Translations under genes and position numbers: made by a program
Source: Amoebidium appalachense
Taxonomy: Eukaryota > Protista > Ichthyosporea
Length of the DNA: 64,000 bases
NCBI GenBank assembly: GCA_963693365.1
Contig: CAVNZM010000013.1
Coordinates: forward strand, 6,438,640 to 6,502,639
Direction: 5' to 3'
Notes under the pieces: generated by a model
Databases searched by the model: none
What the model saw: the letters and a program-made list of their open reading frames with translations, nothing else
Told to the model about the DNA's origin: nothing
Shown: piece by piece, positions 9,701 to 60,100 of the stretch
How positions within the stretch are numbered: position 1 is the stretch's first letter
Layout of the letters: each line of letters starts with the position of its first letter

Positions 9701-9800
9701 GTTGATTGCGCTATATGGTAGACGAATGCACAAATAACGAACACGATGCAGAGTGCAAATCACACACTAAGAGTATGCATAATAAGCAGAGCCCATCCAC
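9701..9800 (-). mobile_element. Dispersed SINE-like element, 5'-truncated copy
   Basis: On +: AACACGATGCAGAGTGCAA...AAGAGTATGCATAATAAGCAGAGCCCATCC, between G tracts. Confidence 0.7.
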
Positions 9801-10921
9801 GGGGGGGAAGGGGGGGGGGGGGGGGGGGGGGGGGGGGGGGGGACAAAGAGAGACAGGGAGGGGACAGAGAGAATGAGGGAGAGGAAAGGGGGGGGGGGGG
9901 GGGCAGATGTGTGTGTGTGTGTGTGTGTGTGTGTGTGTGTGTGTGTGTGTGTGTGTGTGGAGCGCGGGGGGAGGGAGGGGGGGGGGGAGAGGGGGTGATT
10001 AGGGTTAACCACTTCCCGCTTCCCATCATCTTCCCGTGACCTCTAATCCAATTACACATCAGGCTGAAGATATCTTGTTAAACTCACACACACATTAACT
10101 AACCACGACCCCCCCCTCCCCCCCACCCCTGCCCCCAAAAAGCGCACACACACACACACGCACACAAGGACGGGGGCACATGCGTAAACACATGCCATCA
10201 CACCGAGACACGGGTACAAACCCCCCCCCCCCCCCCCCCCCCCCCCCCACACACACACACGCTCACACCCACTCCCATGCCCACACCCACGGACACAAAC
10301 ACACAATCCATGACCAAAATACCCTCTAAAACATTTCCTCGTGCCTAAGTGCATGCAGTAATCGCATACATGTGCATGTGCACATGTGAACACGTGTGAT
10401 AAAACACAGCCAGACACACATTTCGAATGCACCCATTTATTTGTGTTCGTCCCGACTTTCCATAAGACAATTTTAAAAACAATACAAAAACGATAAATAA
10501 AAGAATTTAAAAAAACCCCACACATACTGCCATAAGCAGGTGAAGAGGGTTGTTGCTTGCTTTTGCATTGTTCCCCACTGGTGGTAAGGGTTTTGTGTGT
10601 GTAACTGTAAGGGTGATTTCATATGCATGTGCGTGCTGTACGTGCCGTGCCTGTGTGTACGTGTGGAAGTCGGACCGGGCGTGTGTGTGTGTGTGTGTGT
10701 GTGGGGGGGGGGGGGCATGTACGTGTGTGTGTGAGGGATATACATATGACTGTGCGAGAGGCGGGGGGGAGGGGTCATGTATATGTGTGTGTGAGGGGTA
10801 TACATATGACTCGGAGAGAGGGAGGGGTAGTGGGGGGGGGGGGGGGGGGGGGGGGGGGGGGGGGGGGGGGGGGGGGGGAGGGGGGGGGGGGGGGGGGGGT
10901 GGGGGGAAACAAAAATTTTAC

Positions 10922-57100: not shown

Positions 57101-60100
57101 GTGTGTGTGTGTGTGTGTGTGTGTGTGTGTGTGTGTGTGTGTGTGTGTGTGTGTGTGTGTCTGCGCGCTGCTGAGTGTGTGTGTGCATACACATGGGTGC
57201 GTGTGAGTGTATGTGTGTGTGTTCGGGTACGTGGGGTGTACACGTACGTGGTGTGGGCAATCATGTGTGGGTGTGTTTTGTGAGTTTAGGTTGCAGACCC
57301 CCTCCCCCCCCCCCCCCCCCCCCCCCCCCTCCTCCCCCCGCAAAAAATAAGAAAAGAAACGCACACACACCACCACAAAAAAAGAAAGGAGACAGGCACT
57401 CACATACGGCCACACCAACACACCAACACACCAACACACCAACACACCCACATACCCACATACCCACCCACACAAACAGCTCCCCCCCCCCCCCCCCCCC
57501 CCCCCCCACACCCCCATCCCCACCCACCTTTGCAATGATGGGGTCCTCTGCCTCCTCCTGGCACACACCGCATATGTCCGTGTGTTCGTCTGTCTGGTGG
57601 CGTCCGTACACTACCATGTAGGGGTGGTTGGCTGCTTGTCTGTGGGGGGGGGGGGGGGGGGGGGGGGGGGGTAAGAATGTGTTATAAGGGGTAGAGAAAA
57701 GGAGGGGGAGGGGGGGGGGGGGGGGGGAGGGGGGCTAAGGGTGGGCTACATGCAATAGCCGTTGCGTTTTTTTTTGTTTAGAAAAAGAAAATCAAATGCG
57801 TTGATAAACAAAACAGAACTTCCACATGCGGAAAACCTCATCTTCAACAGCAGGTCGTTGATGCAGTCATGATTTGAAAATTTTATTTAAGAGCGAACCA
57901 AGTAAGCAACAAACATTAAAACACTGCACCTTGCAGGAGGTTGAACATGAGCACGTATCAAAAAATAGCCAACCAGTTAGCCACCGACTTTAATATATCT
58001 CATGTTCACCAGCAGGTCGAATAAGCGGAATAAAGTTTTTAAAATCTTATGCCAAACCAATAAGCGGCAGACATTAATATACCTCGTCTTCAACAGCAGG
58101 CCGAACGCAGAAGTGCATTTTAAAGCCTTATGGCAAACCAAAACTATATGGCAAACCAATAAGCAGCAGACATTGATATACCCCATCTTCACCAGCAGAT
58201 CAGGGTATGCAGCCATACATATAAATCTTACGGCAAGCCAATTAGCAGCAGGGGTTAAAATACCTCATCTTCATCAGCAGGTCAAATATATGGGCATAGT
58301 GGTTGAGCACTGTGCCCTGGTTGACATATGCAAGGAACTTGGTCTTGCTCTCGCTGAACAGCGCCTCATAAAAGTCCATCTCCTCGTCGTTGAACAGGCA
58401 CCTGATTGGCCCAAAGTCAGTCGGAATAGCCTTATGGTTATTCGATAAATCGCGATAAATCGACATGGCAATTGATTGGCCCAAAGGCAGCCAGAATAGC
58501 CCCCCCCCCCCCCCCCCCCCCCCCCCCGGGCCGCGTAGCGCAGGGGAAAAAAAATATATACACCCATCCACCCGAACACACGCCCACCCACCTACCCACC
58601 CACACCCAAAGAAATATACTCACACAACACGTACATAAAATAAAACGAAAAAGAAAAACATCAAACGAAACGAAACGAAAACAAAAAACTAGGAAACGGA
58701 TGAATTAATCACGACCCACCCTCGCTGGGTGACGACTCGTGGTGGCAGACCGAGGTCCTCTGACCGTTCGAGTTTTGTGCGTCGCAGCATAATCTTGTTG
58801 AGTAGGTGCCCTAACTATGAGGGGAGAAAAAAACATTTTGTACTGAGCATGAGTACACAGCACACATTCACAACGGATAACACACTGCAAAGTTTGCAAC
58901 AGCAGAAACGAAGGCAAATCAAAACATAAGCAGAGCCCATCATTCCGGCAGAGAAGGAGGGGAGGGAGGCAAGGCTATCCATAGAATCCAAATTTCGACT
59001 TTTCATCTGGTTCACAAAACCCAACTCAAATACTGATTCGACTTAATCATGGGTGGGTCAGGGGGGGGGGGGGGGGGGGGGGGGGAGGAGGACAAGGGGA
59101 GTAGTGTGTGTGTGTGGGGGGGGGAGGGGGGGGGGGGGGGGTAAATACCTTAACGAAAGCCACACGACCCTCACCCTGTGAGCCAAACTTCTGGATGGGT
59201 TTAAGAATCTCCTTGTTCCACCAGCAGAAATGGCTGTGTGTGTGTGTGTGTGTGTGTGTGTGTGTGTGTGTGTGTGTGTGTGTGTGTGTGTGTGTGTGTG
59301 TGTGTGTGTGTGTGTGTGTGTGTGTGTGTTTATGCTTTACGAGGAATATGAAAGGGATGAGGAAGGTTGGAGTTGGGTAGGTGGAGGGTTTTGAATGCGT
59401 AGCATTGTACTAAGTACAACTACACGATGAGGAACACACCGTGCACGGCACGTGCAAAGGCAAACATTCATGTTCTCAGCACCAGTGGAGCCCATCTTCA
59501 GGGCGGGCCCAAGTCAAAACTGCGTCTGAGTTTCGGCCACATAGCCTCGGGGGAAAGAGAACGCATCTGCATACCAACTAAGACTTTGAATTAACCCCAG
59601 GTCACTAAAGGTGCATCCGGATTATATGAACAATTCTGGAAAGTATGTGTGTGTGCGTGCGTGCGTGCTCGCTTTTTTTTTTTTTTTTTTTTGGGGGGGG
59701 GGGGGGGGGGGGGGGGGGGGGGGGGGGAGAATGTGTTTCAGACAGAACACAAACTGCCCTGCAGAACAAAGAAAAACTGCAAACACAAGCGCACAGTTAG
59801 CAACATATGCAGAGCCTAATACCCGTGTGGGTGTGGGTGTGGGTGTGGATGGGTGGGTGTTTTTTTTTTTTTTTTTTTTTTTTTTTTTTTTTTGGGGGGG
59901 GGGGGGGGGGGGGGGGGGGGTATGGTTACCTCATTGGTTTGTGGCCGCATTCATCGCAGTGTTTGTAGTCGCTAAATTTCCAACTCAGCGACTTGCATGG
60001 GCACTTGGCACTGTTTTAAATAAAAAAAGGCGAGAGGGAGGGGGGGGGGGAGGGGGGGGAAGGGGGGAAGAAAGAAAGAAAGGGGATGAAAAATAGCAGC

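Follow-up and report, generated by a model that had tools for sequence, protein, structure and literature searches.

A short repeat scattered through a 64,000 nt stretch of the genome of the ichthyosporean Amoebidium appalachense (contig CAVNZM010000013.1; the whole stretch is called the window below) raises the question of what kind of element it is, how it is copied, and why its copies lie in the sense orientation of the genes that hold them. An initial annotation, made by reading the letters of the window, had described about 13 copies of a retroposon resembling a short interspersed element (SINE) with a shared core. The reading favoured here, with fair rather than high confidence, is that of a non-autonomous retroposon of C-runs that carries a hammerhead core in the order S-G-C (cleavage site, GAAA, CUGANGA) and is likely copied by a Penelope-like enzyme of the Naiad/Chlamys type; weak or assisted cutting is predicted.

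An nhmmer profile built from ten copies was run on the window and, as a control, on the reversed window. It found 14 copies at E ≤ 0.002 in the former and zero matches in the latter, and a rebuilt profile returned the same 14 at E ≤ 1e-5. Seed copies match such a profile by construction; the four non-seed copies (58852, 52502, 42909 and 59722) scored between 7e-12 and 2e-3 with the first profile. The repeat of the initial annotation is therefore real, with one copy overlooked there, a fourteenth of 60 bases (42909–42968) in the C-run behind 42737. The stated absence of copies at 1–5 kb and inside the Harbinger region (DDE_Tnp_4 at 21553–21918) holds with either profile. Together the copies make up 2,462 bases, or 3.8 % of the window; they are 60–394 nt long and 40–94 % identical to one another. 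A 17-base core is exact in 3 copies, present with at most 1 mismatch in 6 and with at most 3 mismatches in 10. The copies are as follows, H17, G12 and C3 being positions of the predicted hammerhead.

9701–9807, minus strand: 5′-truncated copy that begins in the internal C-run, in an intron of the gene labelled ‘Myb-like’ in the initial annotation
11499–11783, minus strand: copy a (285 nt), subfamily a, in an intron of the ‘Myb-like’ gene; H17 at 11667, G12 at 11639, C3 at 11605; stem III 13/13
27478–27607, plus strand: 5′-truncated copy in an intron of the histone deacetylase (HDAC) gene
30480–30585, plus strand: 5′-truncated copy that begins in the internal C-run, HDAC intron
31176–31304, plus strand: 5′-truncated copy with a damaged core, HDAC intron
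33158–33340, plus strand: copy g, about 50 nt past the likely HDAC stop; begins near the predicted cut site; G block damaged
42737–42889, plus strand: copy c, young, 5′-truncated, 94 % like b, in a putative host gene
42909–42968, plus strand: fragment that follows immediately on the C-run of copy c, forming a partial tandem
52385–52606, minus strand: copy l, diverged, RAD16 intron; intact core with H17 at 52585, G12 at 52555, C3 at 52520; stem III of 10 bp with compensatory changes
53790–53975, minus strand: copy f, RAD16 intron; G block and stem I damaged; compensatory change in the hairpin round block C
55961–56354, minus strand: copy b, of subfamily b and at 394 nt the longest, in a RAD16 intron and flanked on each side by C-runs; its predicted ribozyme is complete
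58852–59060, minus strand: copy k, RAD16 intron; blocks S and G present, an insertion disrupting block C; 3′ end decayed beside the splice acceptor
59389–59594, minus strand: copy h, older and b-like, RAD16 intron; three blocks with H17 at 59576, G12 at 59534, C3 at 59501
59727–59818, minus strand: short 3′ fragment, RAD16 intron

The 3′ terminus is kept by 12 of the 14 copies (the exceptions are 42909 and 58852), while the 5′ ends are staggered and two copies begin within the element's own internal C-run, in agreement with the common 3′ end and variable starts noted before. At least two subfamilies, a and b, can be told apart, and the repeat holds no open reading frame (ORF). Twelve of the 14 copies are solitary, with 42737 and 42909 forming a partial tandem. 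Neither inverted 5′ copies nor an optional 30–40 bp tail were noticed among the 14, for which no systematic search was made.

The core shared by the copies was not recognised for what it appears to be in the initial annotation: it corresponds to the CUGANGA strand of a predicted hammerhead whose partners lie upstream, and is the most informative feature of the repeat. CUGANGA is followed by U-G; GAAAC is located 33–35 nt upstream and GUU 28–42 nt before that. This block order is non-circular and assigns copies a, b, l and h, as far as prediction goes, to type SGC. The three blocks of copy b are as follows.

56158–56171, minus strand: block S, with the 5′ strand of stem III, the GUU site (predicted cut after 56162) and the 5′ strand of stem I
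56119–56132, minus strand: block G, with the 3′ strand of stem II, GAAA (G12 at 56130) and the 3′ strand of stem III
56083–56102, minus strand: block C, with CUGAGGA (C3 at 56096) and one inserted U inside a 6-bp hairpin; the shared core of the initial annotation

Stem III is closed by the GUU and GAAAC regions and has 13 bp in copy a, 9 in b, 10 in l and 7/8 in h, with compensatory changes. In stem I (3–4 bp) three bases past GUU pair with three before CUGA; its third pair is G-C in a and l, A-U in b and U-G in h (a copy with no C-run alongside), and the stem is broken in f. The mismatch at the first stem I pair of copy a is private, the pairing letter being present in >99 % of contig depth, and majority contig letters restore the pairs missing from this copy. 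Stem II consists of G-C and G-U (G-C in h, A-U in the window's copy a), a G-G mismatch and then 2–4 pairs; its changes are one-sided only, and it competes with two other pairings. A further helix round block C has 6 bp in majority a, b, c, h and f (compensatory in f) and 4/6 in l, and two of its pairs overlap stem II. The core letters CUGANGA, GAAA and UH are intact in a, b, l and h. Across a, b, c, f, g, h and l the seventh letter of CUGANGA varies (G, A, U) and the other six are constant. The 28–42 nt between H17 and G12 hold a palindromic hairpin; palindromes of 8–10 bases lie in this linker at 11652–11661, 56145–56154 and 53947–53956, with letters that differ between subfamilies, and are possibly a dimerisation site.

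A structured RNA within the repeat, which the initial annotation had allowed for, is thus borne out by the hammerhead-type blocks and covarying stems, and selection on a hammerhead-type fold is considered highly probable. Cleavage is uncertain because stems I and II are short (3–4 and 2 bp), and whether the predicted ribozyme really cuts is judged to be evenly balanced. The same very short stems would suit a retroposon whose hammerhead motif survives as a relic, dead or otherwise wired, one example being a split core with the local hairpin ahead of GAAA as stem II; the motif would then persist as a protein-binding fold. Stem II is less well conserved than the 6-bp hairpin round block C, and b, h, g, k and l can each form the local hairpin. 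However, the six block C core letters remain constant while the free seventh varies, and stem I covaries in the exact hammerhead register. The GA that precedes the local hairpin is likewise absent from the majority letters of subfamily b, and in subfamily a this hairpin is shortened by a 50 % variant. A relic of this kind is a possibility to be kept in mind, though a doubtful one.

A descriptor that allows all six block orders, with thresholds of at least 6 bp for stem III, 3 for stem I and 2 for stem II, gave 2 matches in 128 kb (both strands of the window). These are copies b and l, both SGC and both on the element strand. Among 20,000 shuffles each of copies a and b, a single one per copy gave any descriptor match. 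In public sequence collections, 235 loci with the core words in S-G-C order were compared (115 of an estimated ~230 and 120 of an estimated ~210); among these 235, 7 reach a stem III of at least 6 bp, 0 pass all three stems in the best register, and none resembles the element by blastn or nhmmer. The exact 23-base family pattern has 0 matches in metagenome, viral and prokaryote collections. The best of the loose-pattern matches, locus L039, was set aside as an ordinary type I hammerhead repeat. L039 (737–836) and L076 (321–404, in tandem) are both ordinary type I hammerheads with an inserted U, on AT-rich, eukaryote-like metagenome contigs. Two further readings were also rejected. A canonical hammerhead formed across tandem copies is ruled out, as tandems give C-S-G; and a coding origin of the 5′ part, suggested by three synonymous-looking changes between a and b, fails because the frame is disrupted by an indel of one base and the letters concerned fold into a hairpin.

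Type SGC was named by Eckert et al. 2023, who in the sections cited here showed cleavage for five natural examples (PMC10085705). According to the same sections these ribozymes come from metatranscriptomes and are placed in no known organism's genome. The validated examples (HRIMA-1 and variants) share with the Amoebidium repeat the S-G-C order, all core letters, the U inserted after CUGANGA and the helix enclosing block C (PMC10085705, as cited in part). Two of the constructs described there have GUC sites, whereas the Amoebidium repeat has a GUU site, a long stem III and a 20–30-nt linker that holds a palindrome. It is also chromosomal and present in very many copies, and its ribozyme is a predicted one.

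The copies are associated with runs of C. C8 occurs within 40 nt upstream of 11 of the 14 copies and downstream of 10, against a background of 547 of 3,553 40-mers. There is no poly-A tail, and the C-runs on both sides mask any target-site duplication. Because the C-run flanks both sides, it is more likely the target than a tail. A short non-autonomous retroposon, as proposed in the initial annotation, agrees with the fixed 3′ end, the 5′ truncation and the lack of terminal inverted repeats. A 6-base inverted repeat between the ends is absent in copies a and b, whose true 5′ ends may lie slightly beyond those tested. Together with ends and flanks that lack TC...CTRR in an AT target, this speaks against terminal inverted repeat elements and Helitrons.

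The label SINE, in its classical sense, does not stand: there is no tRNA, 5S or 7SL match and no poly-A, and the supposed tail is a C-run present on both flanks. Classical SINEs are short, high-copy and non-coding with a fixed 3′ end, as is the Amoebidium repeat, which is unlike them in its frequent 5′ truncation, its ribozyme-like core and its lack of a tRNA, 5S or 7SL head. ARAGORN found no tRNA in the repeat, no Rfam family was reached at gathering score, and the longest copy gave no meaningful Rfam family at E ≤ 10.

Genome-wide abundance was assessed from contigs of public DNA runs. In three runs, 5,118, 3,959 and 8,827 contigs match copy b and 3,804, 2,620 and 5,447 match copy a. A summed depth of ~10^6, compared with ~5–50 per piece, points to the order of 10^4 genomic copies, contig depth being no true copy number. 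Scaled to 202 Mb, the genome size given for one Amoebidium in the part of PMC11244446 cited here, the density in the window would be about 44,000 copies. In run X4 the depth of subfamily a is 0.72–0.89 million over 11672–11751 and 0.80–0.99 million over 11542–11641; in X1 and X2 the 5′ part has about half. As the depth holds up toward the 5′ side, many young copies extend into the 5′ part. The 5′ truncation described earlier is evident in the window, yet milder in genome-wide contigs than the window implies. Single contigs join a truncated start back to a 3′ end in X4 (4 contigs) and X2 (2 contigs). There is no step in contig depth at the predicted cut site, which fits uncut RNA as the template and equally a dead ribozyme.

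These depths bear on whether the copies could instead be the 5′-truncated 3′ ends (pseudo-LTR, pLTR, or 3′ untranslated region) of a long autonomous Penelope-like element, which would leave mechanism and ribozyme unchanged. At the 5′ side, where loose ends continue, the depth of subfamily b has dropped only to about half of its maximum, and the autonomous Naiads read by eye in the part of PMC8557442 described below bear the motif in their last 100–150 nt. On the other hand, the loose ends of subfamily a share ~22 letters beyond 11783, after which the runs diverge, suggesting a unit of ~310 nt. Depth is almost flat over 280 nt in X4, and the two longest copies in the window begin at C-runs with no ORF remnant upstream. 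Truncated ends of a longer element are hence regarded as unlikely.

The preferred reading, a short retroposon with a Penelope-like partner, draws on elements described by Craig et al. 2021 (PMC8557442). In the sections of that paper cited here, Chlamys elements show (C)n insertion, 5′ truncation, partial tandems and non-autonomous forms such as MRC1. Chlamys-1 and -2_cRei, in the part of its supplement used, end in AAC and a C-run, as does the Amoebidium repeat. Most Naiad/Chlamys elements lack a canonical hammerhead in these sections, where eight ‘half cores’ are flagged, and no ichthyosporean is among the families tabulated there.

Of the Naiad 3′ ends in File S5 of that paper, the last 300–650 nt of 17 of 54 records were read by eye, each record being identified solely from the header after it. 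S-G-C order with a GUA site, a 6-bp stem I, a 5-bp stem III, a 3-nt linker and the same 2-bp stem II as in the repeat is seen in two octopus ends; a single squid end is S-G-C with GUU, different stem letters and no stem II. These cephalopod ends belong to the records before Naiad_Ovul, Naiad_Omin and Naiad_Adux, and the stem I letters of octopus and squid differ. Five ends among nematode records have the order C-S-G, and nine of the 17 show nothing in the displayed part. The C-S-G ends (records before Naiad-3_Nbra, Naiad_Hcon, Naiad_Hpol, Naiad_Asuum and Naiad_Lpol) have stems I and II of 4–6 bp with covarying letters; type CSG has been published from two sequences only, in the literature portion cited. 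The likeness of the repeat to Naiad/Chlamys lies in target, truncation, tandems and ends. The Penelope partner proposed in the initial annotation fits this evidence, the partner enzyme itself being putative; it would be an autonomous element with an N-terminal GIY-YIG domain and a reverse transcriptase whose 3′ end resembles that of the repeat. That a Naiad/Chlamys-type enzyme copies the repeat into C/G runs by target-primed reverse transcription is probable.

Target-primed reverse transcription in general yields a fixed 3′ end and 5′ truncation, which would also be expected of a SINE-like passenger of a C-run-targeting long interspersed element (LINE) of the restriction-like endonuclease type, with a hammerhead taken from the LINE tail or acquired independently. 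However, the C-run target, partial tandems, inserted-U core and S-G-C order are all precedented in Penelope-like elements, and the repeat has neither a tRNA, 5S or 7SL head nor poly-A. A LINE passenger is accordingly thought quite unlikely.

Hammerheads are found with other Penelope-type systems as well. In the parts of the sources cited, the Anolis Penelope hammerhead cuts only with its protein and is dispensable for insertion in vitro (PMC11167929), and non-LTR retrozymes are, like the repeat, short, non-autonomous, hammerhead-bearing Penelope-like derivatives of similar length (bioRxiv 10.64898/2026.07.22.740005). Those retrozymes, as described there, have type I hammerheads, occur in tandem arrays and are depleted from introns; the Amoebidium repeat, by contrast, is mostly solitary, abundant in introns, sense here, and permuted. 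The type I hammerhead in tandem monomers that marks a non-LTR retrozyme is not seen here: the window has no C-G-S match, the block order stays non-circular even in tandems of the repeat, and all but two of the 14 copies are solitary. The element would nonetheless work like a Penelope-dependent retrozyme, and on prediction it agrees with type SGC in block order, core and three of the four helices.

Three host genes bear on the orientation of the copies.

8088–12660 (limits by eye), minus strand: gene labelled ‘Myb-like’ in the initial annotation
25850–33400 (approximate limits), plus strand: HDAC gene, with Pfam Hist_deacetyl on two plus-strand pieces
51140–64000, minus strand: RAD16, with 16 exons mapped; runs beyond the window

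The 16 RAD16 exons were placed on the minus strand with a protein identical over them; one exon is identical to a transcriptome protein labelled Amoebidium parasiticum in EukProt, with Ichthyophonus the next match at 92 %. This agrees with the six intronic copies, all minus, assigned to RAD16 before. Likewise, the HDAC gene on the plus strand has four plus-strand copies, three intronic and one just behind the likely stop; this stop codon and the position of copy 33158 behind it were read by eye, and a homologue search for the gene gave nothing at E 1e-14. For the ‘Myb-like’ gene, the minus strand is upheld by a 481-aa ORF and GT-AG sites read by eye, and both its copies are minus, but the name lacks a Pfam match.

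The 12 copies located within these genes or immediately after them are all sense (two-sided p 0.0005 against 50:50; three genes). In the window regions of the three genes, C-run sites away from copies are 65–69 % sense at run lengths of 6–16; against this skew, 12 of 12 gives p 0.006–0.012 if the copies are independent. The C-run skew accounts for only part of the strand bias. The copies may not be independent: should inverted pairs in the same gene be purged, three genes would count as only three draws. Thus the ‘strict’ strand preference of the initial annotation stands as 12 of 12, but only for three genes and with a part that follows from C-run skew. Introns in 8088–12660, 25850–33400 and 51140–64000 are made of long C, G, CA and CT runs. 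Among these, C- and CA-runs are skewed to sense (C8 sites away from copies: 58 sense, 27 antisense), and part of the C-run skew may have been left by old insertions. Look-alikes of the 3′ end, of 14–20 bases, precede C-runs at 57653–57687 (minus), 27796–27825 (minus) and 12512–12540 (plus) and may be extreme truncations or microsatellite chance.

Sense orientation above the C-run skew, if copies are independent, would also be explained by a host-selected intronic RNA (a splicing or export signal), multiplied and kept for its function. Such an RNA is very improbable: most copies are truncated or randomly decayed (40–94 % identity), intron positions vary with 10 of 15 RAD16 introns holding no copy, and one copy lies behind a stop codon.

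Under the retroposon reading, the RNA would arise by read-through, which is inferred because no Pol III-type head was found and would be aided by copies lying sense in Pol II introns. The partner would nick the G-rich strand of a C/G run and reverse-transcribe from the 3′ end, often halting at the element's internal C-run. The pseudoknotted fold would normally be off, forming with the partner protein or in dimers; introns could therefore tolerate the element, and uncut RNA would be the main template. The active fold would compete with a long rod that extends stem III in folds of the majority versions and with the block C hairpin, hence the expectation of a weak or assisted ribozyme. Sense bias would result from the 2:1 C-run skew and loss of antisense copies. 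Concerning its origin, selection is given an even chance and transcription-linked targeting a somewhat smaller one, while small-sample luck is improbable.

Several observations weigh against this reading. The cores of f, g, k and i are damaged, the first stem II pair of copy l is G-U, and the covariation is based on 4–6 copies. The descriptor was devised after the motif was seen, and only 2 of 14 copies in the window pass it, the other 12 failing by truncation or decay. Folding energy of whole copies is no better than that of shuffles (z 0.0 and +1.6) with a program that cannot form pseudoknots. Stems I and II have 4–5 bp in validated SGC ribozymes (stem I 5 in HRIMA-1), compared with 3–4 and 2 in the repeat, and the SGC linker is typically, though not obligatorily, 3 nt, compared with an S-to-G span of 28–42 nt (PMC10085705, in part). 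Six Chlamys 3′ ends, read by eye in the portion of the records displayed, show no complete S-G-C motif, and it is this group that shares the C-run target. No reverse transcriptase or other domain was found in or near the copies by Pfam among 125 ORF pieces of the window; likewise, 236 sequences searched contained no Penelope-type reverse transcriptase motif. Subfamily b extends on its 5′ side to a length of at least 394 nt. With respect to orientation, the sample is three genes, an antisense fragment lies ahead of a 22-A run in one contig of public run X9, which may be an RNA run, and the 14-base 3′-end look-alikes at 27825 and 12512 would both be antisense.

The window holds several other features. 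Harbinger-type transposase pieces (DDE_Tnp_4) lie at 20270–23652 on the minus strand, with 200-base inverted repeats at 20270–20719. Three diverged direct copies of a 600–700-base unit, 73–81 % alike and with no Pfam match, occupy 39451–41447. Segments 17571–17989 and 34868–35247 form an inverted pair, 71 % alike, of a short intron-poor coding-like segment with no Pfam match. An intron-poor F-box/leucine-rich-repeat-like gene, broken up over several frames, is located at 47973–49473 on the minus strand, with an 83-base internal duplication at 48075–48238. The tandem array at 43043–44522, of ~100-base units (43928–44318) between 67-base inverted repeats (43043–43109 and 44325–44391), is possibly a separate DNA element. 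A tandem 90-base repeat lies within a RAD16 intron at 57965–58284.

Among the papers listed by searches of the open full-text literature, none was seen to describe this element or to report SGC hammerheads from retroelements. A search of that literature for the ‘type-SGC’ hammerhead returned only Eckert 2023, which one 2026 ribozyme paper cites in passing. The main text of the Amoebidium genome paper mentions neither ‘SINE’ nor ‘Penelope’. Non-circularly permuted hammerheads were left without known host or role in the cited sections of the paper that described them (PMC10085705).

In its fullest and most tentative form, the finding would mean that the chromosomes of a unicellular organism closely related to animals hold an active SGC hammerhead tens of thousands of times over, and that non-circular hammerheads are the ‘missing’ ribozymes of Naiad/Chlamys elements. 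Sense copies would ride the pre-mRNA, a partner or second copy would switch the ribozyme on, and insertions would have helped build the C-rich, strand-skewed introns; this larger picture is speculative and doubtful as a whole. The element ties SGC hammerheads to the Naiad/Chlamys ‘half cores’ outside animals. A culturable host and a very large natural alignment make the fold, its switching and the role of a ribozyme in Penelope-type retrotransposition testable. Intronic sense bias is unexpected for an RNA able to cut pre-mRNA and, if genome-wide, separates targeting from selection.

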